Positions 802 through 18,773 of a DNA stretch of 24,000 bases are shown here, piece after piece. Both the position numbers and the translations under genes were made by a program. Below the pieces are notes generated by a model. The model saw only the letters and a list, made by a program, of their open reading frames with translations. It was not told where the DNA came from and did not search any database. This DNA comes from Zoogloeaceae bacterium (GTDB lineage Bacteria; Pseudomonadota; Gammaproteobacteria; Burkholderiales; Rhodocyclaceae), in assembly GCA_031287525.1 (NCBI GenBank), contig JAITSU010000051.1:1-24000 (forward strand), written 5' to 3'. Numbering within the stretch: position 1 is the stretch's first letter; each line of letters starts with the position of its first letter.

Positions 802-1893
802 TCAGACATTGAACAAAAAGTTCATCACATCCCCGTCCTGCACCACGTAATCCTTGCCTTCGGCGCGCATCTTGCCGGCTTCCCTGGCACCGTGTTCGCC
901 TTTGCAGGCGATGAAATCGGCATAGGCGATGGTCTGGGCGCGGATGAAGCCGCGCTCAAAATCGGTGTGGATGACGCCTGCCGCTTGCGGGGCGGTGTCG
1001 CCTTTGTGAATTGTCCAGGCGCGGACTTCCTTGACCCCGGCGGTGAAGTAGGTGTGCAACCCCAAGAGGTTGTAACCGGCGCGAATCAGGCGATTCAGAC
1101 CGGGTTCCTCCAGTCCCAGGTCGGTGAGGAAGGCTTGTTTGTCTTCGTCTTCCAGATCCGCGAGTTCTTCCTCAATTTTGGCGCAGACGGCAACCACGGG
1201 CGCGCCTTCTTTGGCGGCGTGTTCTTCCAGTCGCGTCAGGTGCGGGTTATCGTGAAAACCGCTTTCGAGCACATTGCCGACGTACATCGCGGGCTTGATG
1301 GTCAAGAGGCAGAGGGGTTTGATGAGCGCGATGTCTTCCGCCGACAATCCGGCGGTGCGGGCGGGTTTGCCTTCGTTCAAGTGCGGTTGCAGCTTTTTCA
1401 GCGCGGCGACCAGCTTTTGCGCTTCCTTGTCGCCGGATTGCGCCTTGCGGACATCGCGGTTCAGGGTTTTTTCCACGGCGGCGAGGTCGGCTAACGCCAG
1501 TTCGGTGATGATGGTTTCGATGTCGGCAAGCGGGTCGACCTTGCCCGCGACGTGCACGATGTTGGGGTCGTCGAAGCAGCGCACGACATTGACAATGGCA
1601 TCAGTTTCGCGGATGTTGGCGAGGAACTGGTTGCCCAACCCTTCGCCCTTCGACGCTCCTGCCACCAGTCCGGCGATGTCGACGAATTCGACGATGGCAT
1701 GTTGGATTTTCTGCGGTTTGACGATGGCGGAAAGCGCGTCGAGTCGCGGGTCGGGCACTTCGACGATGCCGACATTGGGTTCGATGGTGCAGAACGGGTA
1801 ATTGGAGGCTTCAATGCCCGCCTTGGTGAGGGCGTTGAAAAGGGTGGATTTGCCGACGTTGGGCAGGCCGACGATGCCGCATTGAAGACTCAT
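802..1893 (-). CDS. ychF: redox-regulated ribosome-binding ATPase YchF
   Basis: 363 aa. N-terminal G1 motif [18 protein letters not shown] and the C-terminal TGS-like region ...[29 protein letters not shown] are classic YchF/OLA1. Confidence 0.97.
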
Positions 1894-2495
1894 GCTGTGG
1901 TTCCTTTGATGTGAGTTGCTGTTGTCTTGACGTGCAACAGCCGTTGGGCTTTTTCATAGTCGCCTGCGAGCAGCGCGGGCGAGGCGTCCAGACTGCGTTC
2001 TATGGCGATGTCGATTTCGGTTTGCTCTGCGGCTTTTGGACGGGCGAGGACGAAATCAATGACTTGCTGGCTCATCCCCAATTCGCGCGGATGACCTACC
2101 CCCAGACGCAAGCGCCAGAAATTCGGCGTGGAGAGCGCCGCCTGAATATCCTTCAAGCCGTTGTGTCCGCCGTTGCCGCCGCCCTGTTTCAAACGGATGC
2201 CGCCGGGGGGAAGGTCGAGGTCGTCGTGGATGACCAGCACTTCTTCCGGCGCGATTTTGTAGAAACGCGCCAAAGCGCCCACCGCCTGACCGGAACGATT
2301 CATGAAGGTGGAAGGTTCCAGGAGCCACAATTCGCCTTGCCGCCCGACATTGCCAAAAAACTTGGGCTGCGGCGACAGGCTTACTTTCAGGCGTTGCGCC
2401 AGCGCGTCTACGAACCAGAAGCCCGCGTTGTGGCGGGTGGTTTCGTATTCGGCGCCAGGGTTGCCGAGTCCGACGATCAGGCGGGGCGAGGTCAT
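1890..2495 (-). CDS. pth: peptidyl-tRNA hydrolase
   Basis: 201 aa, [25 protein letters not shown]...GHNGLKDI motifs. The stop overlaps the ychF start as ATGA (1890-1893), implying translational coupling. Confidence 0.95.
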
Positions 2496-3277: not shown

Positions 3278-4228
3278 CTATTCAATAAACAGCGAAGAAA
3301 CAGAATCGTCGCTGCTGATGCGGCGGATGGTTTCCGCCAAAAGGGGCGCCACCGAAAGCTGGCGAATATGCGGACAGGCGGCGGCGTCGGGTTGCAGCGG
3401 AATGGTGTCGGTGACGACCAGCGAATCAAGGTCGGAACCGCCGACCCGTTCCACCGCGCCGCCGGACAGCACCGGATGGGTACAGTAGGCGACTACTTTT
3501 TTCGCGCCGCTGGCTTTCAGGGCGGTCGCCGCCTTGCAGAGCGTACCGGCAGTATCCACCATGTCGTCCATGATGACGCAGGTGCGGTCTCTCACGTCGC
3601 CAATGATGTTCATCACCTCGGTAACATTCGCCTTGGGGCGACGCTTGTCGATAATCGCCAGGTCACATTCCATACGTTTGGCGAGCGAACGGGCGCGCAC
3701 CACGCCGCCGTGGTCGGGCGACACCACCAGCGGATTTTCATAACGCTGTTTCTTGATGTCTTCAATCAGGATGGGCAGACCGTAGATGTTATCGACGGGG
3801 ATATTAAAAAAGCCCTGAATCTGCTCGGCGTGCAAATCCATGGTCAGCACCCGATCCACGCCCGAAACCATCAGCATGTTGGCAACCAGCTTGGCGGCGA
3901 TGGCCACCCGCGAGGAACGCGGACGCCGATCCTGGCGGGCATAGCCGAAATAGGGGATGGCCGCCGTGATGCGTCCGGCGGAAGCGCGTTTCAAGGCATC
4001 GACCATGATGAGAATTTCCATCAGATGATGATTGGTCGGCGCGCAGGTGGATTGCAACACGAAGACATCGTGACCGCGCACATGCTCCTGAATCTCGACA
4101 TTGACTTCGCCGTCCGAAAAGCGCCCTACATGCGCTTGTCCCAGTTTCACATTGAGCGCCGTAGCTACGTCGGCAGCCAGACTGCGGTTGGCGTTCCCGC
4201 TGAAAACCATCAGACTGTTGTAAGGCAT
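3278..4228 (-). CDS. prs: ribose-phosphate pyrophosphokinase (PRPP synthetase)
   Basis: 316 aa. [12 protein letters not shown]..., the GYARQDRR flexible loop, and the PRPP-binding motif [12 protein letters not shown]. Confidence 0.97.
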
Positions 4229-4305: not shown

Positions 4306-4382
4306 TGGCTGGGGAAGAAGGATTCGAACCTTCGAATGCCGGAATCAAAATCCGGTGCCTTAACCAACTTGGCGACTCCCCA
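4306..4382 (-). tRNA. tRNA-Gln (anticodon UUG), CCA encoded
   Basis: Reverse complement: TGGGGAGTCGCCAAGTTGGTTAAGGCACCGGATTTTGATTCCGGCATTCGAAGGTTCGAATCCTTCTTCCCCAGCCA. 7-bp acceptor stem; anticodon arm CCGGA/TCCGG with loop TTTTGAT (anticodon TTG); T-arm GAAGG-TTCGAAT-CCTTC. Confidence 0.92.
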
Positions 4383-4524: not shown

Positions 4525-5922
4525 TTATGGATTCTTTTTTCGTTCTGTCAGCGCGTACCAGTCGAAGCGGCGTGTACTCAACATGACGACGGCAAGCGCG
4601 GCGAACAGCAACGCGCTGCCCATGAGCAGCGCCATATCTTCCAGTTGCAGAATGGCGTAGATCATCGCGTACAGACCGGCAAGGCAGCCGCCGAACACGA
4701 GCGCCACGCGCCAGGAGCCGAACATGCCCGCGAGATAAAGAACGATCAGCCCGATGCAGGCTGCGGCGGCGGCAAGATAGGCCGACAAGAAGGGCAGGTG
4801 TTCGGAGAGCGCGATCAGCAACAGGAAGAAAATGGTGAGCGCCAGCCCGACCAACAGGTATTGCAGGAAGTGTACCGGGCGGCGGCGCGCGATTTCGTAG
4901 ATGAAGAACGCGGCGAAGGTCAGCACGATGAAAAGATTGCCGTACTTTAACGCCCGTTCGGATTGCAGATAAATGTTGATGGGATCCATAAAACGGATGC
5001 CCAGGGCTTCTTCGCCGTTGAGCGTGCTTTCCAGATTGCGCGCCAATTGGGAGACTTCCCATTGCGCGGTAAAACCGTCATCTCCGATTTGCCGACTTCG
5101 CGGCAGGAAACGACCATGAAAACTCGGATGTTGCCAATTGGATTTCAGTTGAATGGCATTGTTTTCCGCCGTGGGCGCGATGTTGAAAGAGGCGGTGCCG
5201 GTGAGTTTGAGCGGAAAGGAAAAGTCGATGTCGCGCGCCGTGCCGAAAGTTAACGCGCCCAGGTCTATTTCCAGCCGGTTGCCCTGCAAGGTTCGGGCGA
5301 AACGCGTGTCTTTCGGTGTCATAAAGTGCATCGGGCGCTGGTCGATGAGAACTTCCGGCGCGACATCAATGCCGCGCAAATCGGAAACACCAAACAGCAT
5401 GACCGCGCTGGCGTCAATGATTTTGCTCTCTTTCGCCACATCCAGAATCAGCTTCATGTCGGCGGGCAGGCTGAAAATACCTTGCAAATTGAGATCAAGA
5501 TGAAAAAGGCTTGCCCGGTAAATCCCCCGATAACGCTGCTCTACCTCGGCGTTTCCCTTGATCGTCAGCGTTTTGGCGGGTACGACGGTGATGTGCTCCT
5601 CCGTTTGGGGCGGCGTGGTGACGGTTTTTTTCGTGTACGTGTCGAAGTAAGTCTTCGCGGGTGTCTTCACGTGGTAACGGATGGCCAATACCGGCCCGGT
5701 CAGGGTTTGCTCCCCGGCGGCGGTTTGGGCGATTTCTTCCGTGACGACCGACTGATAGTGACCGCGTTCGGTGATCTTCGTGTGGATCATGCTAAGCGGC
5801 ACAATCAAAAGCAGGACCAGCACGACTACGCCTGCGAATTTGCCGGTGATCGGAGAAAAACGCCTCCCCTGGAATTTGCCGGACGACGGCGTTTGCAGGG
5901 TTTCTTCGTTTTCCATTTTCAC
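4525..5922 (-). CDS. creD: inner-membrane protein CreD (cell envelope integrity protein)
   Basis: 465 aa. An N-terminal TM segment, a large periplasmic region with ...SNWQHPSFHGRFLP...GF.AQW, and the C-terminal multi-TM block ...YLLVGLALTIFFLLLIALSEH... all match E. coli CreD as I recall it. Confidence 0.85.
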   Translation of the reverse strand: MKMENEETLQTPSSGKFQGRRFSPITGKFAGVVVLVLLLIVPLSMIHTKITERGHYQSVVTEEIAQTAAGEQTLTGPVLAIRYHVKTPAKTYFDTYTKKTVTTPPQTEEHITVVPAKTLTIKGNAEVEQRYRGIYRASLFHLDLNLQGIFSLPADMKLILDVAKESKIIDASAVMLFGVSDLRGIDVAPEVLIDQRPMHFMTPKDTRFARTLQGNRLEIDLGALTFGTARDIDFSFPLKLTGTASFNIAPTAENNAIQLKSNWQHPSFHGRFLPRSRQIGDDGFTAQWEVSQLARNLESTLNGEEALGIRFMDPINIYLQSERALKYGNLFIVLTFAAFFIYEIARRRPVHFLQYLLVGLALTIFFLLLIALSEHLPFLSAYLAAAAACIGLIVLYLAGMFGSWRVALVFGGCLAGLYAMIYAILQLEDMALLMGSALLFAALAVVMLSTRRFDWYALTERKKNP

Positions 5923-5965: not shown

Positions 5966-6700
5966 CTATTTGATGCTGTTCAACTTCTGTTCAATGGCAT
6001 CCAGCGAAATTGCGCCGGGGATGCGCGAACCGTCGGCGAAAAACAGGGTGGGTGTGCCGCGCACATTCAGTTTTTGCGCGAATGCGAGATTGCGGTCAAT
6101 GGCGCTGGTGTCGCAATCGCTTTTACCGGCGGGTTCCTTGTTGCTCAACATCCAGTCATTCCAGGCTTTCGCCTTGTCGGCGGCGCACCAGATTTGGCGT
6201 GATTTTGTGTCGGAATCCTCAGAGAGAATGGGGTAAAGAAAGGTGTACAGCGTTACGTTGTCGAGCTTCATCAAGTCTTGCGCGAGCCGTTTGCAGTAGC
6301 CGCAGTTGGGGTCTTCGATGGTCGCCAGCACACGCTTGCCATTGCCGCGCACCTGCTTGATCGCCTGCGTCAAGGGCAGGTCGGCGAATTTGATGGCGGA
6401 AAGCTGCTCAAGCCGCGCCTCGGTCACATTGCTCATGTTTTTGGTATCGAACAGACTGCCGTTTAACAGCGCGCTGACTTTCTCATCGGTGTAATAAATC
6501 TGTCCGTCGATATACAACTCGTACAAACCCAGATAGCCTGCCTTGCGAACACTGTCGATTTGCGTTTTCAGGATTTTTTCAGCCGTCTGTTTCACCTTGT
6601 CTTCCGGCGAAGATTTGCTCGCTTGCGCCAGCAGGGGGGGCGTGAAAGCCGCGAAGGAAAATGCGGCGACCAGCGCCAGCATGAAATTCTTTTTGAACAT
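5966..6700 (-). CDS. dsbC: periplasmic thiol:disulfide interchange protein, DsbC/DsbG family
   Basis: 244 aa. Signal peptide MFKKNFMLALVAAFSFAAF..LLAQA, thioredoxin-fold active site CGYC (..DPNCGYCKRL..), and cis-Pro region GTPTLFF. Confidence 0.85.
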   Translation of the reverse strand: MFKKNFMLALVAAFSFAAFTPPLLAQASKSSPEDKVKQTAEKILKTQIDSVRKAGYLGLYELYIDGQIYYTDEKVSALLNGSLFDTKNMSNVTEARLEQLSAIKFADLPLTQAIKQVRGNGKRVLATIEDPNCGYCKRLAQDLMKLDNVTLYTFLYPILSEDSDTKSRQIWCAADKAKAWNDWMLSNKEPAGKSDCDTSAIDRNLAFAQKLNVRGTPTLFFADGSRIPGAISLDAIEQKLNSIK

Positions 6701-6874: not shown

Positions 6875-7714
6875 TTAAAAATCCGCCGTATCCGGGTGCG
6901 GGCCGATGCGGTTTTTGGGGGCGTCCAGCGCCTTGATTCTGGCGCGGTCTTCGGCGTCGAGGGTGAAATCGAAGACGGCGAAGTTTTCGGTGATGCGGGG
7001 CGCGTGGATGGATTTGGGAATCACCAGCAGTTGTTCATCCAGATGCCAGCGGATGACGACTTGCGCCGGTGTCTTTTTGTGCTTTTGGGCGATGGCGCGG
7101 ATGAGTTCGTTTTTCAGCAAAGCGCCTTGACCCAAGGGACTCCATGATTGCGTCAGGATGCCGTGTCGGGCGTGGAACGCGGTGAGTTCACGTTGCTGAA
7201 AGTCGGGGTGCAGTTCAATCTGATTGACGGCGGGCGTGACGCCGGTTTCCTGGATGACGCGCTCCAGATGCGCGGGTTCAAAATTGGAAACGCCAATGGC
7301 GCGCACACGCTTTTCTTCCAGCAAACGCGCCAGCGCCTTCCAACTGTCGGCGTACAGGTCTTTTTTCGGCGCAGGCCAGTGAATCAGGTACAGGTCGACG
7401 TAATCGAGTTGCAGCCGTTTCAGGCTGGCGTCGAAGGCGCGCAGGGCGCTGTCATAACCCTGTTCGCTGTTCCAGAGTTTGGTGGTGACGAAGACCTGCT
7501 CGCGCGGCAGGGCGGCGGCTTTTAAGCCTTGTTTCAAGCCATCTCCGACGCCGGTTTCGTTTTCATAAATGGCGGCGGTGTCGATGAGGCGGTAGCCGTC
7601 TTTCAGCGCGTTCTTGACGGCATCGGCGGCAACATCATCCGGCGTTTGCCAGGTGCCAAGCCCCAGTTGCGGGATTTGGACGCCGTTGTTCAGGGTAAGA
7701 AAAGGTTGCGGCAT
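6875..7714 (-). CDS. aldo/keto reductase (DkgA/DkgB-like)
   Basis: Family-typical N-terminus MPQPFLTLNNGVQIPQLGLGTW, then ..DTAAIYENE.., ..LYLIHWP... Start moved to the ATG at 7714, which is preceded by AAGGAGA. The 296-aa track ORF carries a 17-aa extension. Confidence 0.9.
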   Translation of the reverse strand: MPQPFLTLNNGVQIPQLGLGTWQTPDDVAADAVKNALKDGYRLIDTAAIYENETGVGDGLKQGLKAAALPREQVFVTTKLWNSEQGYDSALRAFDASLKRLQLDYVDLYLIHWPAPKKDLYADSWKALARLLEEKRVRAIGVSNFEPAHLERVIQETGVTPAVNQIELHPDFQQRELTAFHARHGILTQSWSPLGQGALLKNELIRAIAQKHKKTPAQVVIRWHLDEQLLVIPKSIHAPRITENFAVFDFTLDAEDRARIKALDAPKNRIGPHPDTADF

Positions 7715-7786
7715 GGTGGCTCTCCTTTGAGGTGAAAAGCGAGCGGGTGGCTTACGCTTTGCCAACCCACTGCAAAAAGTCTCTTG

Positions 7787-8839
7787 TCACTTGGTCGTCA
7801 GGCTGGCGCTGTCGATGACAAAACGGTATTTCACGTCGCCCTTGACCATGCGTTCGTAAGCGTCGTTGATCTGGTCTGCCCGGATCAGTTCAATGTCCGC
7901 CACAATGCCGCGCTCGGCGCAGAAATCGAGCATTTCCTGGGTTTCGGGAATGCCGCCAATCATTGATCCGGCGAGGGAGCGGCGTTTGCCGATCAGGTGA
8001 AACACCTCTGGCGAAGGATGCGGCGACGCGGGCAATCCGACCAGGCTCATCGTGCCGTCGCGCTTCAACAGGGTCATGTAGGCGTCAAGATTATGGGGGG
8101 CGGCGACGGTGTTGAGGATGAAATCGAAACTCTTGACGTGCGCGACCATTTCATCGGCATTGCGGGAAACAACGGTTTCATCCGCGCCCAGCGCCTTCGC
8201 CGCGTCGCGTTTGGAGGGCGAGGTAGTGAAGGCGACGACATGCGCGCCCATCGCGTGCGCGATTTTGATGCCCATGTGACCAAGACCGCCGATGCCGACG
8301 ACGCCGACCTTTTTGCCCGGCCCCGCGCGCCAATGACGCAGCGGCGAGTAGGTGGTAATACCGGCGCACAACAGCGGCGCGACGGCGGCGAGTTGGGCTT
8401 CGGGGTGATGGATCCGCAGAACATAATGCTCGTGCACGACGATTTGTTGTGAATAACCGCCCAGCGTATGACCGGGCGCGTCCGGTGTGGCGCCGTTGTA
8501 GGTGCCCACCATGCCGTCGCAGTAATTTTCCAGCCCGGTGTCGCACTCTTCGCAATGACGACAACTATCGACGATACAGCCGACGCCCACGAGGTCGCCC
8601 GGCTTGTAGCGGGTGACATGCGCGCCCACCGCCGAAACGCGCCCGACGATTTCGTGTCCGGGTACGCACGGAAAAAGTGTGCCTGCCCATTCTGCTCGTA
8701 CGGTGTGCAGATCGGAGTGACACACGCCGCAATAGGCGATGTCGATTTGCACATCGTGCGCGCCTGGCGCGCGTCGGGTGATTTCCATCGGTTCAAGCGA
8801 TTGATCGCTCGCGTGAGCGCCGTAGGCTTTGATTGACAT
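7787..8839 (-). CDS. zinc-dependent NAD(P) alcohol/aldehyde dehydrogenase (cinnamyl-alcohol-DH family, YahK-like)
   Basis: MSIKAYGAH...IAYCGVCHSDLH..., structural-zinc Cys cluster CRHCEEC..C, and GVVGIGGLGH Rossmann motif. Start set at the ATG at 8839, preceded by AAGGAG. The track ORF (421 aa) has a 71-aa spurious extension. Confidence 0.9.
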   Translation of the reverse strand: MSIKAYGAHASDQSLEPMEITRRAPGAHDVQIDIAYCGVCHSDLHTVRAEWAGTLFPCVPGHEIVGRVSAVGAHVTRYKPGDLVGVGCIVDSCRHCEECDTGLENYCDGMVGTYNGATPDAPGHTLGGYSQQIVVHEHYVLRIHHPEAQLAAVAPLLCAGITTYSPLRHWRAGPGKKVGVVGIGGLGHMGIKIAHAMGAHVVAFTTSPSKRDAAKALGADETVVSRNADEMVAHVKSFDFILNTVAAPHNLDAYMTLLKRDGTMSLVGLPASPHPSPEVFHLIGKRRSLAGSMIGGIPETQEMLDFCAERGIVADIELIRADQINDAYERMVKGDVKYRFVIDSASLTTK

Positions 8840-9039: not shown

Positions 9040-9993
9040 ATGCCCGTTTCAAGACGTGAATTTATCGTGGGAAGTTCTCTGGCGATTCTGGGCGTCGGCG
9101 GTCTTGACCGCGTTGCCGCCGCGACACAGAACTCCGTAAAGGCAAAAGTCTATTTCACCAGGGATTTGAGTCCTGTCGGACTGAGCAAACTCTACGCCCG
9201 GATTAAGCAGGGTTTGAGCGGCAAAATTGCCGTCAAGGTGCATACCGGCGAACCCAACGGGCCGAACATCATCCCCCGCGAATGGGTCAAGGCGTTCCTG
9301 TCCGGCGTACCCGACAGCACGATCGTCGAGAGCAACGTGCTTTATCCCAGCCCCCGGCAAACCACAGAGGGTCATCGGCAGACGCTGAAGACAAACGGCT
9401 GGACATTCAGCCCGGTGGACATTCTGGATGCCGACGGCGATGTGAATCTGCCCGTCACGGGCGGTAAGTGGATCAAGGAACTGGCGGTGGGGAAGCATCT
9501 TCTCAACTATGAATCCATGCTTGTCCTCACGCATTTCAAGGGTCACGCGATGGGTGGATTTGGCGGCTCGCTCAAAAATATCGCCATCGGCTGCGCTTCC
9601 GGCAAGCTGGGCAAGAAACAACTGCATCAGGAAGGCGACAATCTTTGGGCGGCTGGCCCCAATTTCATGGAGCGCATGGTTGAAGGCGGAAAAGCGATTA
9701 CCGATCACTTCGGTTCGCGCATTGCCTATATCAATGTCCTCCGCAACATGTCGGTGGACTGCGACTGCGCGGGCGTGAAAGCGGCGCCTCCGACGGCGCC
9801 GGATTTGGGTATTCTGGCGTCGACGGACATTCTTGCGGTCGACCAGGCGTCGGTCGATCTGGTCTACGCCTTGTCGCCGGAACAACGGCACGACCTCGTT
9901 GAACGCATTGAGAGCCGCAGCGGTCTGCGTCAACTTACGTACATGAAGGAATTGGGTTTGGGCAACGATCAATATGAATTGATCACGGTCTGA
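9040..9993 (+). CDS. DUF362-domain protein with twin-arginine (Tat) signal peptide
   Basis: MPVSRREFIVGSSLAILGVGG..AAA is a Tat-type signal. The core has the K.H...P and THFKGH..GGFGGSLKN..G blocks I recognise from DUF362. The ATG at 9040 has GGAG 7 nt upstream. Confidence 0.8.
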   Translation: MPVSRREFIVGSSLAILGVGGLDRVAAATQNSVKAKVYFTRDLSPVGLSKLYARIKQGLSGKIAVKVHTGEPNGPNIIPREWVKAFLSGVPDSTIVESNVLYPSPRQTTEGHRQTLKTNGWTFSPVDILDADGDVNLPVTGGKWIKELAVGKHLLNYESMLVLTHFKGHAMGGFGGSLKNIAIGCASGKLGKKQLHQEGDNLWAAGPNFMERMVEGGKAITDHFGSRIAYINVLRNMSVDCDCAGVKAAPPTAPDLGILASTDILAVDQASVDLVYALSPEQRHDLVERIESRSGLRQLTYMKELGLGNDQYELITV

Positions 9994-10020
9994 TGGCTGG
10001 TTGGCATCAATTGGCGTCAT

Positions 10021-10045
10021 CGGGGCGGGTTTGAAACCCGCCCCG
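10021..10045. terminator. GC-rich stem-loop between convergent genes (likely terminator, no clear U-tract)
   Basis: CGGGGCGGGTTTGAAACCCGCCCCG: perfect palindrome, 11 bp per arm around a 3-nt centre. Confidence 0.45.
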
Positions 10046-10095
10046 ATACGTTCTGGCGTACTGTTTACTCCGCTCGCCTGAATTTGTATTGCCGG

Positions 10096-10941
10096 TTATG
10101 ACGAATCCCTGTTCTTTGAGGCAACTCGCCGCAAACTTTTTGTGTTCAGCGAACTGATGATGGATTTACCCGTGCTTTTTTCGATTTGGGTACGCGCTGC
10201 CCTGGCTGCCTTCGCGCCTTCCCTGGCGACCTCCGCGCTCTCGCTAAAACCAGCGGGCTGTCGCACGATGGAAATATCGGTGGCGGCAACCTCGGCGAGC
10301 ATATTCAACACCAACTCGGTGTTGGTCATGTTGTCCCGCAAATTCTCCTTTTTCAGCCCCTTGTGCTGCTTGTATTCACGGGTGCTCATACCACTCCATG
10401 TCCTGCTCATCAAATCGGTCAAAGCCGCATATTCTTTCCCTTTGGCAACACCACTCCTGTCCCACTCGTCGGTGAGCGCCTTACGCACTTCAATGGATTT
10501 GATACGTTGGTTGATCCAGTTTTCGCTGTACCCCAAACGCCGGAAATTCTGAATGGCGCGGTCAATGGAAAGCTCCGGGTCGACGGTTTCGTCGAGACGC
10601 TCATTTCCTGCCTGCGCCAGCCACAACTTGAACGGCTCCGCTTTCTTGCTGGGAATAGACTGAATCAGGCGCAAAATCTGTTCTGTGTCGGCGACATCGG
10701 TCAGGTATTTTTTTCCATCCGACGAGCGCATTTTCAGTTGGCTACAATTTGTAGCCAACTCGCTGCCTTCCTTTTTCAGCCTTGTTTTGAGAACGCTCCA
10801 ATATTTGCGTGGGTTATCGCTGTCGGTCAGAATCGCAACGATGTCGATGATGGAGAACCACCACTTTTCGGCTTCCTCATCCCACGCCGTGCGGACAGTT
10901 TTCTGCTCGAACAACTTGATTTTGCTGGTTTGCGCGTTCAT
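10096..10941 (-). CDS. Bro-N domain protein with DinD-like C-terminal region (prophage-antirepressor / DNA-damage-inducible protein D-like)
   Basis: 281 aa. The N-terminus (...IKLFEQKTVRTAWDEEAEKWWFSIIDIVAIL...) looks like a Bro-N domain. The C-terminal ...YKQHKGLKKENLRDNMTNTELVLNML... resembles the E. coli DinD segment ...HQRKGLKK..ILDHMGSTELAANLF as I recall it. Starts 15 nt after the larE stop on the same strand. Confidence 0.7.
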   Translation of the reverse strand: MNAQTSKIKLFEQKTVRTAWDEEAEKWWFSIIDIVAILTDSDNPRKYWSVLKTRLKKEGSELATNCSQLKMRSSDGKKYLTDVADTEQILRLIQSIPSKKAEPFKLWLAQAGNERLDETVDPELSIDRAIQNFRRLGYSENWINQRIKSIEVRKALTDEWDRSGVAKGKEYAALTDLMSRTWSGMSTREYKQHKGLKKENLRDNMTNTELVLNMLAEVAATDISIVRQPAGFSESAEVAREGAKAARAARTQIEKSTGKSIISSLNTKSLRRVASKNRDSS

Positions 10942-10956
10942 ACATCTTCTCTCTGG

Positions 10957-11784
10957 TCAAACGGATTGATTTTGAACGACGAGCGTTTCGTTCATGCTAC
11001 CCGTGCGATAGCCCAGTAAATCGAGGGATACGTAAGTAAAGCCGTATTTCCGCAAGGCTTTGTAGACCTTTTCCCGATTTTCCGCCGTCATCAAACGCGC
11101 CATTCCCCCGTCGTCGGTTTCGATACGCGCCAGAGTACCGTGCAGACGCACGCGCACCTGTTTCAGCCCCAAGTCCAGCAAAAACTGTTCGGCGCGGTCA
11201 ATCATTTCCAGGCGCGACACGTCAATTTTTTCGCCATAGGGGATGCGGCTCGCCAGACAAGCGAAGGAAGGTTTATCCCAGGTGGCAAGCCCCAATTCTT
11301 TTGAAAGCTGCCGGATTTCCGCCTTGTTCAGATGGGCGTGGCGCAAGGGGCTTTTGATCTGATGTTCTTCGATGGCGCGCAGCCCCGGTCGATAATCGCC
11401 CATGTCATCCATGTTTGAGCCTTCCACGACATGCTTGATGCCTTCGTTGTCGGCAACTTCCCGCAGGCGCGTCATCAACGCCGTTTTGCACAGATAACAG
11501 CGATTGACCGGATTGCCCGAAAAACCGGCGATATCCAGTTCTTCGGAGTCCACCAGCACATGCCGGATGCCCTCTTGTCTGCAAAAGGCAATCGCCTCGT
11601 CCAGTTCGCGCTTCGGAAAGGAATGCGAACGCGCGGTGACGGCAAGCGCCCGCTCGCCCAGCGTGTCATGCGCCATTTTGAGCAGAAAGGTGGAATCCAC
11701 GCCGCCGGAAAAGGCGACGACAACGCGCTCCAGCGATTCGAGACAGGCGGCGAGGGTCTGTTTTTTTTCTTCCAGAGTGGGCAT
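10957..11784 (-). CDS. larE: LarE, ATP-dependent sulfur transferase for nickel-pincer nucleotide cofactor synthesis (PP-loop ATP pyrophosphatase)
   Basis: 275 aa. PP-loop VAFSGGVDST and the conserved sulfur-donor region KPSFACLASRIPYG (Cys176). An additional CxxC is present (NRCYLCK, Cys96/Cys99). Confidence 0.9.
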   Translation of the reverse strand: MPTLEEKKQTLAACLESLERVVVAFSGGVDSTFLLKMAHDTLGERALAVTARSHSFPKRELDEAIAFCRQEGIRHVLVDSEELDIAGFSGNPVNRCYLCKTALMTRLREVADNEGIKHVVEGSNMDDMGDYRPGLRAIEEHQIKSPLRHAHLNKAEIRQLSKELGLATWDKPSFACLASRIPYGEKIDVSRLEMIDRAEQFLLDLGLKQVRVRLHGTLARIETDDGGMARLMTAENREKVYKALRKYGFTYVSLDLLGYRTGSMNETLVVQNQSV

Positions 11785-11787
11785 CGG

Positions 11788-13017
11788 CTAGACCTCTTTC
11801 AAAATGTCATTTGCTGTTTTCATAAAAGAGACACCGTTTTTTTCCGCCAATGCCGCGACATCCTCGTATTCCGGCTTGGATTTGCCCACGCCATAGCCTC
11901 TGCCGCGCTTGATGCGGACGCTGCCCAGGCGGGTTTGTTGTTCGGTGAATTCGCGGGTAAGGATATAACGCTCACACAGGGTTTTGCGGACGCCGAAACT
12001 GCTGGTGTGGACGAGCATCAATTTTGCGAAGCGTTCCGCCTCAGCGGGCGCACAGAGGCAGGTGAGCAGTACGCCGGGACGACCTTTTTTCATCTGCGCG
12101 GGAACCGTGAACACATCCAGCGCGCCTGCCGCGAGCAGCGTTTGCGCGGCATGGGCGATGGCTTCGCCGGTCATGTCATCCAGATTACAGCGCAGTTCTG
12201 CCACAGCGTCATTGCTTTGACTTGCCGCGTCAGCATGTTCGCCAACACTTTCACCCCAAAAAGCGCGTACCGCGTTCAAAGCGCCGATAAACGCTTTCGC
12301 GCCCATGCCGTAGCCCGTCTTTGCCACGCGCATCGTCGGCATTGCGCCGAATTCCTGGACGAAATGCCGCAGCAGCGCCGCGCCGGTGGGTGTGCACAAC
12401 TCTCCATCAATGGCACCGCCGTAAGCGGGAATGCCTTCGAGCAGCCGCAGCGTCGCTGGCGCGGGTACGGGCAGAATGCCGTGGGCGGTATTGACCTGCC
12501 CCTTGCCGACATGGATTGCCGACGCCACGATACGCTCCGGCGCGAGCCGTTCCAGCAGGATCGCCACGCCGACAATATCGACAACGGCGTCCATCTGCCC
12601 GACTTCGTGGAAATGAATTTGCCCGACCGGACAGCCATGCGCGGCGGATTCCGCCTCGGCAATCAAGCGATAGACTTGAGCGGCGTGTGTACGCACCGAA
12701 GCCGAAACGGGCAGACGCGACAGCAGAGACTCGATTTCCCCCAAGCCTGTTGTCGGAGCGTGTCGGGGGTGACGAGAAGGGGCGAAGGCAGCCTGGGGTT
12801 CATGCTCTTCCTGCCCGCCGATGCGTACCGCGAAGCGCGTGCCGGTGATTCCGCATCTTGTCGCAGGCTCGACCGCAACCCGCGCGTCCGGCAATCCGAG
12901 CGCGTTGAGCGTTTGAAGAAACGAGGCTTTGGCATCGTCCGCCAGCAGTTCATAGAGCGCCGCCATCAGCATATCGCCCGCCGCGCCCATCGCGCATTCA
13001 AGATACAAGGTCTTCAT
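11788..13017 (-). CDS. larC: LarC, nickel insertion protein (pyridinium-3,5-bisthiocarboxylic acid mononucleotide nickel chelatase), single fused polypeptide
   Basis: True N-terminus MKTLYLECAMGAAGDMLMAAL is typical of the LarC/DUF111 family. Its ATG (13015-13017) overlaps the larB stop as ATGA. The 543-aa track ORF has a 134-aa Arg/Gly-rich spurious extension running through larB. Confidence 0.9.
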   Translation of the reverse strand: MKTLYLECAMGAAGDMLMAALYELLADDAKASFLQTLNALGLPDARVAVEPATRCGITGTRFAVRIGGQEEHEPQAAFAPSRHPRHAPTTGLGEIESLLSRLPVSASVRTHAAQVYRLIAEAESAAHGCPVGQIHFHEVGQMDAVVDIVGVAILLERLAPERIVASAIHVGKGQVNTAHGILPVPAPATLRLLEGIPAYGGAIDGELCTPTGAALLRHFVQEFGAMPTMRVAKTGYGMGAKAFIGALNAVRAFWGESVGEHADAASQSNDAVAELRCNLDDMTGEAIAHAAQTLLAAGALDVFTVPAQMKKGRPGVLLTCLCAPAEAERFAKLMLVHTSSFGVRKTLCERYILTREFTEQQTRLGSVRIKRGRGYGVGKSKPEYEDVAALAEKNGVSFMKTANDILKEV

Positions 13018-13790
13018 GATGAGGCGCCCCGCGTTTGATTGATCCGGCTCGCCAGCACCGCCGCGCCGTAACCGTTGTCGATATTCACCACCGCCACGCC
13101 GCTGGCGCAGGAATTGACCATTGCCAGCAGCGCCGCAATGCCGCCGAACGACGCGCCGTAGCCGACACTGGTGGGTACCGCGATCACCGGACAACTCACC
13201 AGCCCGCCGATGACCGTGGCAAGCGCCCCTTCCATGCCGGCGACGGCGATGACGACCCGCGCCCGCGCCAACGTATCCTGTTGCGCCAGCAGACGATGCA
13301 AACCGGCAACGCCCACATCGTAAATCCGCTCCACATGATTGCCCAGCGTCAGAGCGGTGAGCGCCGCCTCCTCGCAAACCGGCATATCGCTCGTGCCGCC
13401 AGAGGCGATGACGACGCACCCGGTTGGTTGTGGCAGAGATTCCGGCAAAAGCAGCGCGAGTCGGGGCAGCGGGTGATGCACAAGGGGAATGCCATTCGCC
13501 AGCAGCGCATCCACCGCCGCCTGATTGACGCGGGTGACGAGGAGATTACGCAAGCCGTTTTCCCGCATTTTGAGGGCAATGGCGACGATTTGCTCCGGCG
13601 TTTTGCCCTCGCCAAAAATCGTTTCCGTCATGCCCTGACGCAGCCCGCGATGCAAATCGGGCTTGGCAAAGCCGAGGTCTTCAAAAGGCAGGGTTTGCAG
13701 GCGCAACAGCGCCTCATCCGGCGTGAGCGTCCCTGCCCTGATGCGGTGCAGCAGCGCGAGGATTTTGTCTTTTTCGTTAATGGGAACCAT
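13014..13790 (-). CDS. larB: LarB, NaAD carboxylase/hydrolase (pyridinium-3,5-biscarboxylic acid mononucleotide synthase; PurE-like)
   Basis: 258 aa from the ATG at 13790: ...LPFEDLGFAKPDLHRGLRQG.TE.IFGEGKT... and the PurE-like C-terminal domain VVIASGGTSDMPV...AVAGMEGALA...PTSVGYGA. There is no SD. Confidence 0.88.
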   Translation of the reverse strand: MVPINEKDKILALLHRIRAGTLTPDEALLRLQTLPFEDLGFAKPDLHRGLRQGMTETIFGEGKTPEQIVAIALKMRENGLRNLLVTRVNQAAVDALLANGIPLVHHPLPRLALLLPESLPQPTGCVVIASGGTSDMPVCEEAALTALTLGNHVERIYDVGVAGLHRLLAQQDTLARARVVIAVAGMEGALATVIGGLVSCPVIAVPTSVGYGASFGGIAALLAMVNSCASGVAVVNIDNGYGAAVLASRINQTRGASS

Positions 13791-13876: not shown

Positions 13877-15769
13877 TTAAAGAAACCTGTCCGGCGCGAT
13901 GGCGTTTGCCAAATCGTATTCCAGCGGCAAGGGTTCGCCCCCCATCAGGCTGGCGATGAAGTCTGCCATCAGCGCCGACCAGACGATGCCGCGCGAGCCG
14001 AAGCCCTGCGCGCACCAGAGTCCGGGATGCGTGGGCGGGCGGCGGCGGGTTTTGCGGGCATTGAGGTCAGGTACCGCGCCGACGATGGGTAGACGGTCAG
14101 GCGACATGGGGCGAAAACCGACCCTGCCGCGCAAGCTTTCCGGCTTGATGTGTTCGGCAAAGCCGGGCAACAGGACGTTCAGTTTGTGCAGGTTTTCCGC
14201 GTGTTCCCGCGCGCGCTCATTCGTATCCAGATCATCCAGCAGATAACTCGCGCCGACGACGCGAATGCCATCCACCAGCGGCGTGGCGTAGCCCTGACCG
14301 CAAATCAGGGTGTCCAATCGGGGCGTGTCGGCGGCGGCGAGCCAACTGACTTGTCCACGCGCGGCGCGTTGCGGCAACCATGAAAAAGCCGCGAAACGGG
14401 GCGCGTCGATGCCGCTTGCCATGACGAGATGCGGCGCGGCGGCGATGACTTTGCCTTGCGCGTCCAACGCCTGCCATGCGCCTTGCTCGCGGCGAATTTC
14501 CGCGACCCGCACAGGGCAGCGGAGCGTAATGCGTTCGGCATTGGCGAGCAGATTGGCGCGGCAGAGCGAAGGCGGTTGCACCCAGCCGCCCAAGGGAAAA
14601 TACCAGCCGCCACGCGTGGTCGGGTAGCCCAGTAATTCGCTGGCGGCGCTCTGGTCGAGGTAGCGCAGAAATTCCGGCGGCAGCCCAAGCCCCGCAACCG
14701 CTTTGGCTTGCGTGGCTTCGTGTTCGGCGTCGCGGGCGAGGTGCAATGCGCCGGTTTGTCCCCAACGAATCGGCAGACCGGCGGCGGTCAGCGTTTGCAA
14801 ACCATTCAGGGCGGCGAGAAAACCGGCGCGGGTGAGACGCGCGAGGAAATTGTCATCCACCGAGGGCAGGGGGCGCATGACGCCCGCCAGATTGCCGGAA
14901 GCGCCCTGCCCCGGCGCGTCGCGGGCTTCCAGCACATCCACCTGCCAGCCACGGGCTGCCAATGCCGCAGCGACGGAGGTGCCCGCGACGCCCGCGCCAA
15001 TGACGATGGCGCGGCGCTCATCGGGCGCGGGGGCGGGATAGGGATGCGGTTTACGCGAACGGTAGCGACCAACCAGCATTTGCCGTTTTTCGGCAAAGCC
15101 AGCGCGTTTTTCCAACGCGAATTCGTTGGCGGCGAGCGCCGCGCGCAAATGTCCGGCGACCGACCATGTGGCAAGCGTCGCGCCGGGAGCGGCGAGGCGG
15201 GCGATGGCTTTGCAGATTTCCGGCGACCACAAATCGGGATTTTTCGCCGGAGAAAACCCGTCCAGATAAAACGCGTCCGCCGCCAACATCAGACGGCGCA
15301 GTTCGCGCGTGGCATCACCGAAAATCAGGGTTAAAGTGACGCGCCCGCCATCCAGAAAAATCCGGTGGATGCCAGGGACGAGCAAAGGCCAACGGTTTTG
15401 CAATGTTGCGGAGAGCGGCGCGAGTTCCCGCGAATCCCGCAACACATGCGCCTGCGCCCGCGCCAAATCCTCGCGGGTAAACGGGTGTTTTTCGACGGAA
15501 ACAAAATGCAGCCGCAGACAAGCGCGCGGGTCAGCGCGCCACGCCGCCCAGGTCGCCAGAAAATTCAGCCCCAGCCCGAAGCCGGTTTCCAGAATCACAA
15601 ACTGCTCATGCCCCTGCCAACGGGCGGGTAACTCGTTGCCGCTTAAAAACACATGCCGCGCCTGTTCCAGAGCGCCATGACAGGAGTGATACACGTCGCC
15701 ATAGCGTTCAGACCAGAGCGTGCCATCGGGGGAGAAGGAGAGAGGGGCGGGGGTCAGGGGGTTAGGCAT
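13877..15769 (-). CDS. mnmC: bifunctional tRNA (mnm5s2U34) methyltransferase / FAD-dependent cmnm5s2U34 oxidoreductase MnmC
   Basis: 630 aa. N-terminal methyltransferase domain (..YGDVYHS...FVILETGFGLGLNFL..) and C-terminal DAO-type FAD domain (IVIGAGVAGTSVAAALAARG). Confidence 0.92.
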   Translation of the reverse strand: MPNPLTPAPLSFSPDGTLWSERYGDVYHSCHGALEQARHVFLSGNELPARWQGHEQFVILETGFGLGLNFLATWAAWRADPRACLRLHFVSVEKHPFTREDLARAQAHVLRDSRELAPLSATLQNRWPLLVPGIHRIFLDGGRVTLTLIFGDATRELRRLMLAADAFYLDGFSPAKNPDLWSPEICKAIARLAAPGATLATWSVAGHLRAALAANEFALEKRAGFAEKRQMLVGRYRSRKPHPYPAPAPDERRAIVIGAGVAGTSVAAALAARGWQVDVLEARDAPGQGASGNLAGVMRPLPSVDDNFLARLTRAGFLAALNGLQTLTAAGLPIRWGQTGALHLARDAEHEATQAKAVAGLGLPPEFLRYLDQSAASELLGYPTTRGGWYFPLGGWVQPPSLCRANLLANAERITLRCPVRVAEIRREQGAWQALDAQGKVIAAAPHLVMASGIDAPRFAAFSWLPQRAARGQVSWLAAADTPRLDTLICGQGYATPLVDGIRVVGASYLLDDLDTNERAREHAENLHKLNVLLPGFAEHIKPESLRGRVGFRPMSPDRLPIVGAVPDLNARKTRRRPPTHPGLWCAQGFGSRGIVWSALMADFIASLMGGEPLPLEYDLANAIAPDRFL

Positions 15770-15782
15770 CGGGTGTCAGGTG

Positions 15783-16256
15783 TCAAAATCGGAGTGGCTC
15801 ATCAGTAAAATTGAATTCTTCCAACAGGGTTGTGTGCTCTTCGTCTTCCCAAATAACCACGCCTTGATTCAGTATCTTGTAATGTAAGCCAATGCAATAA
15901 ATTTTCTTGTTTTCATATTTTTTATTTTCGGTAATGAATTTATTAAAATTTTCTTCCAGCAGCGCAGAATTGTTGTACAACAACAGGGCATGTTCTTTTC
16001 TTTCGTCGAGAAATTTATCTTCTCTGATGTCAATAAATACAGGGTTATTGTTGATGCTTACATATAGTCCATATGACTTGTCGCCATCAATATCATGATA
16101 ATCCAGAGTGCCATAACTAACAGCAAGGCTGGTAAGGGTTGCAGCCGTTCTTTCAGTCCTCGCCTTTGCTTCTTCTGTTTTTGCTTTTCTGATTTTGTAA
16201 ATAGCAAAAAGCAACAAGAGCGCCCAAATAATTGCGAATAAAGTCCTTCCAGTCAT
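15783..16256 (-). CDS. hypothetical membrane-anchored protein (AT-rich islet gene 1)
   Basis: 157 aa from the ATG at 16256, with GGAGA 8 nt upstream; the track ORF begins at a TTG 6 codons earlier. One N-terminal TM segment (LFAIIWALLLLFAIY), then an Asn/Lys/Glu-rich soluble domain. No family recognised. Very AT-rich: 15901-15960 has 12 G/C of 60. Confidence 0.6.
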   Translation of the reverse strand: MTGRTLFAIIWALLLLFAIYKIRKAKTEEAKARTERTAATLTSLAVSYGTLDYHDIDGDKSYGLYVSINNNPVFIDIREDKFLDERKEHALLLYNNSALLEENFNKFITENKKYENKKIYCIGLHYKILNQGVVIWEDEEHTTLLEEFNFTDEPLRF

Positions 16257-16297
16257 CGGTGTATCTCCGTTCAATAGTCAGCGAGCAAGCGCAGGTT

Positions 16298-16474
16298 CAA
16301 TGCCATTAAGTTAAGCGTGTGGTCTGAAAGTTGTTGGGTAAGCCGGAGGCGTAACCCAACGGTAGGGCGCGCTCTCCGAGCGCGCCGGATGTAACGTCCG
16401 GCTGTTTCGGAGAAACAGCCCTACCTAAAACAGCACTCTACAAATGCCAGCCTACGCTTAACTTAATGGCATTG
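16298..16474. mobile_element. 177-bp MITE-like insertion with perfect 21-bp terminal inverted repeats and a 10-bp target-site duplication
   Basis: TIR-L CAATGCCATTAAGTTAAGCGT (16298-16318) is the exact reverse complement of 16454-16474. It is flanked by the direct repeat AGCGCAGGTT (16288-16297 and 16475-16484). Deleting the element plus one repeat copy restores ...AGCAAGCGCAGGTTGGGTAAGCGAAGCG, matching the uninterrupted copy at 17725-17752. No coding capacity. Confidence 0.65.
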
Positions 16475-16582
16475 AGCGCAGGTTGGGTAAGCGAAGCGTA
16501 ACCCAACATCCCCACGCTATTCGCGTATTGTACATGAAGAACGGTTATGTTGGGTTGCGCCTTTGGCTTACCCAACCTACGC
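16475..16582. repeat. REPIN-like palindromic repeat, copy A (its left end, 16284-16297, is displaced by the MITE)
   Basis: About 92% identical by eye to 17729-17837. It is built from two inverted hairpin modules GTTGGGTAAGC-N-GCGTAACCCAAC (16482-16507 on +, 16549-16576 on -) around a ~40-nt spacer. The outer end on the minus strand begins GTAGGTTGGGT (GTAG head). Confidence 0.75.
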
Positions 16583-16598
16583 ACAATTTCACAGGGTC

Positions 16599-17069
16599 TC
16601 ACCCTGCGCCGACGCAGCGATAGCTCGTGGAAACCACGATGCCATCGCGCGCGCGGATGAAAAATTCGATGCCCCATTTCCACACCTCTTCTCCTTGAGC
16701 CTTGCCCATCCATACGTTGGCAAGCCATCCGTGCTCGCCTGCCTGTTCTTCCGGCATAATCTCGACCTGCACATAGTTATGACCATCCGGGTCATTGAGT
16801 TCGACCAGAAAACCGCTCAAATACGCTCCAATTGTCGCATCCAGAAAATCTGTACCCACTCCATGACAGGAACTATTGATACTCAAAGGTACTTTTGCGC
16901 TCAAGAACATCGCCTCGATGACGCTTTTAGCGGTTGGGGGCAGAGTAACGACTCGAATTTCGGAAGTCGGAGTATTGACTTCTGTGAATTGGGCGCTGGC
17001 ACAACCCACCAGCAGAAAGGCGACACTGCTGATGAGATAAAGTCGTATCCACTGAAATAATGAAATCAT
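16599..17069 (-). CDS. hypothetical lipoprotein (AT-rich islet gene 2)
   Basis: 156 aa. Signal peptide with lipobox LLVG|C (MISLFQWIRLYLISSVAFLLVGCAS). No family recognised. Confidence 0.6.
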   Translation of the reverse strand: MISLFQWIRLYLISSVAFLLVGCASAQFTEVNTPTSEIRVVTLPPTAKSVIEAMFLSAKVPLSINSSCHGVGTDFLDATIGAYLSGFLVELNDPDGHNYVQVEIMPEEQAGEHGWLANVWMGKAQGEEVWKWGIEFFIRARDGIVVSTSYRCVGAG

Positions 17070-17214
17070 GTCGCTATTTTTTTCCCTTGAATAGATGGAT
17101 CGCCGTATAACAAGGCAGGATTCGCCCCCGGCTTCATACGCTGCACTTGTTTTCTGCGTGTTTCATCGAAATCCAATCCTGAAACATGGCTAACGAAATG
17201 AGCGCAATTCGTAT

Positions 17215-17679: not shown

Positions 17680-17728
17680 CAGAAAACCAACTCCGGTTGA
17701 ACCCCCGCCCTTTCGGGCGGTGGAAGCA

Positions 17729-17822
17729 AGCGCAGGTTGGGCAAGCGAAGCGTAACCCAACATCCCCACGCTATTCGCGTATTGTATATGGGGAACGGTT
17801 TATGTTGGGTTGTGCCTTTGGC

Positions 17823-17837
<15 letters not shown>
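17729..17837. repeat. REPIN-like palindromic repeat, copy B (overlaps the last codons and stop of hldA)
   Basis: Same architecture as copy A: modules at 17736-17761 (+) and 17804-17831 (-). The adjacent GNRA hairpin CCGCCC-GAAA-GGGCGG (17705-17720, read on the minus strand) is not part of the repeat. Confidence 0.75.

Positions 17838-18773
<936 letters not shown>

Follow-up and report, generated by a model that had tools for sequence, protein, structure and literature searches.

In this work we analysed a 24,000-nucleotide stretch of DNA from a Zoogloeaceae bacterium (assembly GCA_031287525.1, contig JAITSU010000051.1, positions 1 to 24,000 of the forward strand), hereafter called the window, and we focus on one of its genes, which encodes a protein of the DUF362 family and lies beside larB, larC and larE, the genes that make the cofactor NPN (nickel-pincer nucleotide). 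On balance we lean towards the view that this protein is an enzyme that is loaded with NPN in the cytoplasm and then exported through the twin-arginine translocation (Tat) pathway, and it is a strong candidate for a new family of NPN-using enzymes, which would be the first one in the periplasm. This view is built on a clear family assignment, a Tat motif, a relatedness to the lactate racemase LarA at the level of the fold, an alignment of conserved residues with those of LarA, and a recurrent linkage to lar operons.

The DUF362 gene has a stop-free translation of 317 residues, and a Shine-Dalgarno sequence (GGAG) is found about 6 nt 5' of its ATG (9040). Its product matches PF04015 (DUF362) with 135.3 bits (gathering threshold 24, E 3.7e-39), residues 63-273 covering positions 1-200 of the 200 of the hidden Markov model (HMM), and thus belongs to DUF362 over the whole domain. 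PF04015 is the sole Pfam match at E<=0.01, and neither Lar_N (PF09861) nor Lar_C (PF21113), which represent the LarA superfamily (DUF2088, IPR048068), is found in the protein. By sequence model, by domain composition and by its lack of the two catalytic histidines of LarA, the protein is a member of DUF362 and stands outside the LarA superfamily. The closest ortholog, 84% identical, is encoded in a Zoogloeaceae metagenome-assembled genome, and the family as a whole comprises 2,903 cluster representatives at E<=1e-3.

The predicted structure of the protein shows a relationship with LarA. The AlphaFold2 (AF2) model, obtained from a 42-sequence alignment, has a pLDDT of 92.1 and a pTM of 0.88, the low-confidence part (pLDDT <50) being residues 1-25 only. 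When this model was compared with the PDB by Foldseek, all matches at E<1e-3 were LarA-family chains (16 chains, E 5.7e-7 for 8EZF to 3.8e-4, 260-348 aligned columns, TMq 0.38-0.44), and the next match, a non-LarA one, had an E value of 1.3e-2; the model thus has an alpha/beta fold of the LarA type. Moreover, hhalign comparison of the DUF362 alignment with 45 LarA N-domains gave an E value of 0.025 over 186 columns. The original prediction would have been refuted by a lack of profile or structural similarity to LarA, and both kinds of similarity were found. Searches of the PDB by sequence, either with the single protein (phmmer) or with the 42-sequence profile (hmmsearch), found no LarA match, only noise at E>0.2, so that LarA is detectable through profile-profile and fold comparison and not through a plain sequence search. 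DUF362 and LarA_N (DUF2088) have already been placed in one Pfam clan, CL0471, and DUF362 serves as the outgroup in a LarA tree (PMC11770544). Since the sole PDB folds at E<1e-3 belong to the LarA family and the two families have this clan in common, the similarity is more than chance, and the best explanation is that DUF362 and the N-domain with which LarA binds its cofactor are distantly related sister families.

The alignment also locates putative equivalents of LarA active-site residues. The three LarA blocks used in the original prediction turned out to be letter-perfect (residues 62-86, 164-192 and 196-203 of PDB 5HUQ/8EZF), with His174, Lys184 and His200 placed correctly, and the codons proposed as their counterparts do encode His165 (9532-9534), Lys179 (9574-9576) and His196 (9625-9627). 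Two of these assignments hold in hhalign: the thioamide lysine Lys184 aligns with Lys179, and the nickel-coordinating His200 with His196, which is invariant in alignments of 42 and 203 sequences. The third does not, as LarA His174 falls on His169, four residues beyond His165. In a low-confidence part of the alignment Asp72 of LarA lies on Glu71, and the H73-T-R75 phosphate/substrate loop corresponds to a gap in DUF362. The expectation that His108, the other catalytic histidine of LarA, would have no counterpart was borne out, since this residue aligns with Pro105 (and Arg109 with Arg106), and the catalytic pair His108 and His174 is therefore not preserved. The residues conserved across LarA homologs are a catalytic histidine, the nickel-binding histidine, the lysine and a ribose-binding aspartate (PMC12611868); three of these four have aligned counterparts in DUF362, as does the second catalytic histidine (His174), but not the first (His108). 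Judging from model and alignment, the window protein thus has the fold and the predicted cofactor-holding residues of LarA in common.

These residues are highly conserved, as anticipated for the lysine and histidines. Conservation was scored in 82 distant representatives of the family (38-60% identity) and amounts to 99% for Lys66, 98% for Glu71, 90% for His112, 98% for His165, 99% for Lys167, 94% for His169, 95% for Lys179, 98% for Lys192 and 100% for His196; a Cys-Asp-Cys motif formed by Cys241 (96%), Asp242 (95%) and Cys243 (94%) is retained in Tat, Sec, cytoplasmic and Fe-S-inserted forms alike. Because of these additional conserved residues, the DUF362 pocket would be richer than that of LarA, with the Cys-Asp-Cys motif as an extra element. 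Within the family, the Tat-exported clade to which the window protein belongs is 60-85% identical between Zoogloeaceae, Desulfovibrionaceae, Bilophila, Sutterella, Helicobacteraceae and Mucispirillum, and spans Pseudomonadota, Desulfobacterota, Campylobacterota and Deferribacterota.

The N-terminus, MPVSRREFIVGSSLAILGVGGLDRVAAA, contains a twin-arginine motif followed by a hydrophobic stretch and an A-A-A cleavage site, in agreement with the Tat signal initially proposed. The sequence VSRREFIV... AAA has the features of a predicted Tat substrate, namely an S/T-R-R-x-F-L-K-like motif, a hydrophobic region and an AxA site. The twin arginine is present in 104 of 116 close homologs with an intact N-terminus, several of which match the Pfam TAT_signal model (PF10518). 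We count this conserved signal in favour of the proposed reading because the protein is expected to fold around its cofactor before export. Tat-exported cofactor enzymes are common in Desulfovibrionaceae, Helicobacteraceae and Sutterella.

The lar genes of the window form a complete NPN biosynthesis operon on the minus strand (10957-13790), about 1 kb from the DUF362 gene as first described, and all three score above the NCBIfam equivalog cutoffs (Table 1). The larB stop overlaps the larC start by 4 nt, and larC and larE are separated by 3 nt. The reported lack of larA from the 24 kb was likewise reproduced: none of the six-frame open reading frames (ORFs) of the window matches a LarA_N HMM built from 45 sequences at E<=1e-3. 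The window LarE combines the SGGVDS motif with a CxxC...C pattern (NRCYLCK ... SFACLAS). This pattern is that of the catalytic, [4Fe-4S]-dependent LarE of Thermotoga and not of the sacrificial L. plantarum type (PMC9283937), despite which NCBIfam names the window protein 'sacrificial'.

The association of DUF362 with lar genes extends well beyond the window. In a sample of 83 orthologous DUF362 loci, 80 of them from a scan with one genome per species, larB/larC, with or without larE, directly adjoin DUF362 in 14 loci, which belong to three phyla and show at least six arrangements; NCBIfam identifies the adjoining genes as LarB and LarC1. When the sample is restricted to loci flanked by 3 kb or more on either side, the figure is 9 of 47, for which P is about 1e-14 at a generous chance rate of about 0.003 per locus, or 2e-11 when just 6 events in 20 lineages are counted. 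The genes are convergent in the window and in its closest relative (L004), collinear as DUF362-larB-larC-larE in Helicobacteraceae and Burkholderiales, and ordered DUF362-larB-larC1 with gaps of 15-53 bp in Bilophila, Lawsonia and other Desulfovibrionaceae; DUF362-larC1 occurs in L024 and L055, a divergent arrangement in Mailhella, larE-DUF362-larB-larC1 in Geobacter sp. FeAm09, and two DUF362 genes followed by larB-larC1 in Humidesulfovibrio. Such varied arrangements argue for repeated selection rather than a single inherited accident. Furthermore, copies that adjoin lar genes and copies that do not are interleaved by sequence, and therefore make up one family.

The association is also strong from the side of LarB. 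Among 80 metagenome loci collected with a short LarB, 51 have enough upstream sequence, and in 44 of these larB is preceded on its own strand by a DUF362 gene whose end is no more than 450 bp away. When the loci are dereplicated (95% nucleotide identity), DUF362 is immediately upstream of larB in 15 of 22 groups and nearby in three more. Most of these DUF362 genes encode a cytoplasmic form with an inserted 2x[4Fe-4S] domain. Its gene comes first in an operon of CMD, DUF362-Fe-S, larB, larC1, larE and flavodoxin_4 that is found in many human-gut metagenome contigs, and the most abundant gut LarB cluster has the order 6PGL-like, DUF362(Tat), larB, larC1 in every place read. The LarA_N profile found no LarA N-domain in any of 172 loci (about 1.9 Mb). 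The co-location of DUF362 and lar genes that had been put forward is thus very strong in both samples, and DUF362 has the genomic association with larB, larC and larE that would be expected of an NPN-dependent enzyme. The operons of Desulfovibrionaceae and Geobacter (L038, L041, L045, L024, L055, L089, L090, L183-L186) encode only the LarC1 (nickel-insertion) half of LarC, about 270-290 aa long, whose N-terminus is often rich in histidine. Near these LarC1-only operons beside DUF362 we detected no CTP-binding LarC2 domain, and either LarC2 is encoded elsewhere or the pathway is different.

A mechanism may be proposed on this basis. LarB, LarE and LarC would make NPN, which would be installed in the folded apoprotein in the cytoplasm, with Lys179 providing the thioamide tether, His196 completing the nickel coordination and Glu71 holding the ribose; the loaded, folded protein would then be exported via Tat. 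In the periplasm, where there is no NAD(P)H, the tethered pyridinium could serve as a built-in hydride carrier, and small compounds with hydroxy or carbonyl groups would probably undergo a one-base hydride transfer, resulting in epimerisation, dismutation or oxidoreduction. Cofactor binding, covalent attachment, export of the holo-protein and the kind of substrate are what we infer for the window protein. That NPN can shuttle hydride between molecules was shown by the aldo-keto reductase (AKR) NphT (PMC13524815). Because a single LarA-type catalytic histidine (His169) is kept, a classical racemisation with two histidines is probably not what the protein catalyses; LarA homologs with a single catalytic histidine offer a partial precedent (PMC12611868). 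The flavodoxin-like, Tat-exported proteins that often adjoin DUF362 in other genomes may receive the electrons; these neighbours and the sister forms with inserted Fe-S domains hint at electron transfer partners.

Several points weigh against a Tat-exported NPN enzyme. The DUF362 gene of the window is convergent to the lar operon and not co-transcribed with it, and for about 80% of the orthologous loci of the Tat type the nearest 10 kb are devoid of lar genes. LarA is out of reach of a sequence-only search, and the E value of just 0.025 in hhalign and the TM-scores of 0.38-0.44 are modest. In the alignment the phosphate-binding HTR loop of LarA (Arg75) appears deleted and His108 absent, and the invariant Cys-Asp-Cys motif has no role in the LarA model. 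Moreover, relatives that are Sec lipoproteins or carry no signal (38-45% identity) keep the HFKGH...K...H and Cys-Asp-Cys motifs unchanged, and the Sec forms acquire their fold outside the cell, to which NPN has no known route of delivery. The original proposal that DUF362 is an NPN client is accordingly a mixed case: none of the outcomes that it had named as refuting it was observed, it gains from the similarity to LarA, the conserved lysine and histidines and the co-location with lar genes, and it loses from the Sec relatives (40-45% identity) with the same residues, from the many loci without lar genes nearby and from the His174 equivalent being His169 and not His165.

The retention of the motifs in the Sec forms, together with the pairing of these forms with an ArsP_1 permease, is the best support for a different explanation, that the protein is an extracytoplasmic metalloprotein without NPN, in which the histidines, lysines and Cys-Asp-Cys bind nickel, iron or zinc directly and the link to lar genes reflects a common nickel supply or regulon; the His-rich LarC1, for example, could be a nickel donor. 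Identical motifs in Sec, cytoplasmic and Tat forms are easiest to understand if the cofactor can be obtained in all compartments, most orthologs lie away from lar genes, larC1 stands alone beside DUF362 in two loci (L024 and L055), and the Cys-Asp-Cys motif, conserved at 94-96%, has no counterpart in the LarA mechanism. However, the aligned lysine, histidines and acidic residue correspond to the NPN-contacting set of LarA, and we noticed no gene for nickel transport among those that recur beside DUF362. LarB, which is known only for making the pyridinium dicarboxylate precursor, is the tightest partner of DUF362 (44 of 51 loci; the gaps measure tens of bases), and because this partner is LarB and not a nickel transporter the explanation is weakened; we consider it unlikely. 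It is more doubtful still that DUF362 makes or handles NPN, as a scaffold or carrier or as a substitute for the absent LarC2 in LarC1-only operons. DUF362 does head the larB-larC1(-larE) operon in most short-LarB loci, where the LarC2 domain is absent, and a LarA-like pocket could hold cofactor intermediates, but the window LarC is full length with LarC2, so that nothing is missing there, and Tat signals are present in the window protein and in many of the copies linked to operons, whereas exporting a biosynthetic helper makes little sense.

Finally, the window lar operon could serve another client, either a LarA encoded elsewhere or an oxidoreductase such as the AKR NphT, its adjacency to DUF362 being incidental. 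There are 427 cases in which an AKR accompanies lar genes, and NPN is bound by one such AKR (PMC13524815), an AKR and a zinc-dependent alcohol dehydrogenase (Zn-ADH) lie 1-3 kb away in the window, and AKR, alcohol dehydrogenase, cupin and flavodoxin genes recur in DUF362-lar clusters. At least six different arrangements are nevertheless not incidental, and the AKR of locus L090 looks like a canonical, AKR13-like enzyme. The weight of this explanation is further reduced because the AKR of the window is of the canonical DkgA type and has the IPKS...R...N motif for NADPH binding, and because no AKR is detectable within 10 kb in 13 lar-adjacent loci, in which DUF362 is always present; we therefore think it improbable.

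The Tat-exported NPN enzyme that we favour for the window may be part of a larger picture. That all DUF362 proteins, cytoplasmic Fe-S forms and Tat-exported forms alike, constitute an unrecognised and widespread class of NPN-dependent enzymes is a conjecture to which we give a little less than even credence. If it is true, the cytoplasmic forms would wire NPN to a 2x[4Fe-4S] domain and thereby link one-electron carriers to hydride chemistry, a novelty for NPN, the Tat forms would be the earliest known case of NPN enzymes that work beyond the cytoplasm and perform hydride chemistry without NAD(P)H, and part of the approximately 15% of genomes that have larB, larC and larE without larA would be explained.

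Table 1 Positions of features in the 24,000-nucleotide window, with remarks.
Feature	Position	Strand	Remarks
ychF	802-1893	-	
pth	1890-2495	-	
prs	3278-4228	-	
tRNA	4309-4382	-	
creD	4525-5922	-	
dsbC-like	5966-6700	-	
Aldo-keto reductase	6875-7765	-	DkgA-like, NADPH type; PF00248
Zn-dependent alcohol dehydrogenase	7787-8839	-	Divergent from DUF362; PF08240 + PF00107
DUF362 gene	9040-9993	+	317 aa; predicted LarA-clan fold, candidate NPN client; PF04015, AF2 model, Foldseek
Tat signal peptide (aa 1-28)	9040-9123	+	Motif S4-R-R-E-F-I9 at 9049-9066; predicted cleavage after A26-A-A28
Glu71 codon	9250-9252	+	Aligned to LarA Asp72 (NPN ribose; PMC12611868); hhalign, 98% conserved
H165-F-K167-G-H169 motif	9532-9546	+	His169 (9544-9546) on LarA catalytic His174; hhalign
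Lys179 codon	9574-9576	+	Aligned to LarA Lys184 (thioamide tether); after Gly-rich loop GGFGG; hhalign, 95% conserved
His196 codon	9625-9627	+	Aligned to LarA His200 (nickel ligand); hhalign; invariant
C241-D242-C243 motif	9760-9768	+	Conserved in the family (94-96%); no LarA counterpart identified
GC-rich hairpin GGGGCGGG-TTTGAAA-CCCGCCCC	10022-10044	.	Between convergent DUF362 and lar genes; from sequence; kept in closest relative L004
Bro-N / DinD-like gene	10096-10941	-	Between DUF362 and larE
larE	10957-11784	-	275 aa; SGGxDS PP-loop + CxxC...C; TIGR00268 339 bits (cutoff 150)
larC	11788-13017	-	Full length, LarC1 + LarC2; TIGR00299 199 bits (cutoff 90), NF052512 142 (cutoff 50), PF01969 E 3e-129; start confirmed
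larB	13014-13790	-	258 aa; NF033503 271 bits (cutoff 175)
mnmC	13877-15769	-	
pfkB-family kinase	17823-18773	-	
lapB	19263-20429	-	
Chemoreceptor (MCP)	20981-22636	+	

The Zn-ADH and AKR genes that had been noted as divergent neighbours of DUF362 are indeed there, and the former recurs: orthologs of the window Zn-ADH with 53-58% identity were found by tblastn inside DUF362-lar clusters of Geobacter and two metagenome lineages (L089, L112 and L169). AKRs are encoded in several DUF362 loci. The window AKR was considered as an NphT-type nickel enzyme and rejected, as 2,5-diketogluconate reductases are the PDB proteins that it matches best (E 1e-96 to 1e-98) and its canonical cofactor motif is in place; the loss of the NADPH pocket and the His/Lys motif that characterise the NphT type are not seen in it, and the NphT structure 9YEB is absent among the best 60 of its 172 PDB matches. 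The L090 AKR was rejected in the same way, its best PDB matches being NADPH-dependent reductases. Other recurrent neighbours of DUF362 are an AraC regulator (18 loci), an exported protein of the carboxymuconolactone-decarboxylase family (15 loci), an exported cupin (14 loci) and a flavodoxin_4 protein (about 15 loci), the last with a Tat signal of its own in at least some cases. The flavodoxin_4 neighbour inspected in L016 (10970-11599) has its own twin-arginine signal, and in L057 (10889-12325) a flavodoxin is fused to an AKR and preceded by a signal peptide. These neighbours of Tat-DUF362 suggest a set of exported small redox proteins.

Relatives of the window protein occur in other settings as well. 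In the cytoplasmic form, the 2x[4Fe-4S] ferredoxin domain is inserted just after the His196 equivalent (L090 4754-5908; L096-L164, e.g. L097 6758-7888). Sec-lipoprotein relatives (about 44% identity) pair with an ArsP_1-family permease (PF03773) in the three of three loci read (L084 158-2201, L085 1107-3179 and L182 742-2758), the genes overlapping by a few bases in L084 and L182, and MBL-fold, AKR and LysR genes are found near them. Some very large ORFs also have a DUF362 domain embedded in them, with 37-44% identity to the window protein; these ORFs are of 1,251-2,316 aa in loci L173-L177 and up to 2,928 aa among the representatives (proteins P0150, P0174, P0205, P0224 and others), on viral-classified IMG/VR contigs of 89-274 kb, which are apparently jumbo phages. 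No lar genes were found beside the Sec-lipoprotein, cytoplasmic and phage-encoded relatives, on contigs that were short (3-17 kb), and none lies within 6 kb of the phage-contig ORFs (L173-L177). Several genomes encode two Tat-type DUF362 paralogs, in tandem or separately (L046 91-2312; L067 6698-10951; L005 and L015; L028 and L030). Residues 68 and 185 were tried as markers of lar-linked and unlinked forms and discarded, since neither separates them cleanly.

The window itself is an ordinary chromosomal stretch of a betaproteobacterium with a G+C content of roughly 57%, and owing to this high G+C content long ORFs antisense to its genes, such as 9049-10020 on the minus strand, are by-products. 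Between DUF362 and larE, the GC-rich hairpin is likely a bidirectional terminator, as judged from its sequence. The Bro-N region (10045-10986, local G+C 0.52) is an insertion of about 940 bp relative to L004, where DUF362 and larE are 48 bp apart and separated by the same hairpin; the Bro-N gene looks like a mobile or phage-derived element inserted just past the terminator. No nickel/cobalt riboswitch or other RNA element was found near the DUF362 and lar genes of the window and eight loci, in which only tRNAs and a distant TPP riboswitch were detected. Further downstream, a stretch of lower G+C (15783-17769, 0.46-0.49 as compared with about 0.57) contains three small minus-strand ORFs (15783-16274, 16599-17069 and 17215-17769), the first and last of which had no match in a Pfam scan; the stretch may be an island of small size that was acquired.

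The protein families with a known use of nickel are very few, and use of a nickel-pincer cofactor has been shown for only three scaffolds, which are those of LarA, of the AKR NphT and of an ornithine cyclodeaminase with the related dinucleotide form NPAD (PMC13524815). It has been said since 2014 that many genomes make NPN without LarA, and non-LarA NPN proteins are expected in about 15% of genomes (PMC11796402). Mining of lar-adjacent genes has already yielded one non-LarA family, that of NphT, in a study that focused on proteins without LarA homology (PMC13524815), which may be why DUF362 was not reported there. Our literature searches (DUF362, PF04015, COG2006) found no functional study of the family, which appears only as an outgroup in LarA phylogeny, and, within the library searched, no paper linking it with the nickel-pincer cofactor. 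DUF362 is thus a concrete and abundant candidate for the NPN users of larA-less genomes, and the candidate clade is common in human-gut Bilophila, Desulfovibrio, Mailhella and Sutterella as well as in environmental Geobacter and Rhodocyclales. Lys179, His196, His169, Glu71, Cys241 and Cys243 are singled out as targets for mutation. If the proposal is true, this would be the first nickel-pincer enzyme outside the cytoplasm, a large DUF family would acquire a function, and hydride transfer of a new kind, perhaps with Fe-S or flavodoxin partners coupled to it, would come within reach.

Compared with known systems, the window protein is a clear full-length member of DUF362 / COG2006, but, in contrast to the COG2006 label of 'uncharacterized Fe-S center protein', it has no Fe-S domain and belongs to a tightly conserved Tat-exported clade. 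Periplasmic [NiFe] hydrogenases also carry a twin-arginine signal, and their cofactor, including nickel, is inserted in the cytoplasm before Tat export; their fold and cofactor differ from those considered here, and no dedicated export chaperone was identified in the present analysis. NphT (PDB 9YEB) is likewise a non-LarA candidate found through larB/C/E adjacency in loci without larA, with a Lys and His pair proposed for cofactor tether and nickel and a suggested hydride shuttling without NAD(P)H (PMC13524815). However, NphT is a cytoplasmic TIM-barrel unrelated to LarA and is experimentally proven, whereas the window protein belongs to the LarA clan, is predicted to be exported and is a candidate only. 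With the LarA superfamily (PDB 5HUQ, 6C1W, 8EZF, 2YJG, 6D6Z, 9EIA and 9Q3J) it has in common the clan and the Gly-rich H-x3-G-F-x-G-x2-K loop, and the tethering lysine, nickel-binding histidine, acidic residue at the ribose position and one catalytic histidine of LarA are all aligned in it; many larA genes, like the window DUF362 gene, adjoin larB/C/E. Unlike LarA, the mature protein is about 290 aa long (about 420 for LarA), lacks the catalytic His108 and the HTR phosphate/substrate loop, and contains the extra invariant His165, Lys167 and Lys192 and the Cys-Asp-Cys motif; it also has a Tat signal, in contrast to the LarA enzymes characterised so far, which are all cytoplasmic. As far as sequence and model allow us to say, the DUF362 clade would therefore be a family of the LarA clan in which the architecture, the cellular location and probably also the chemistry are new.

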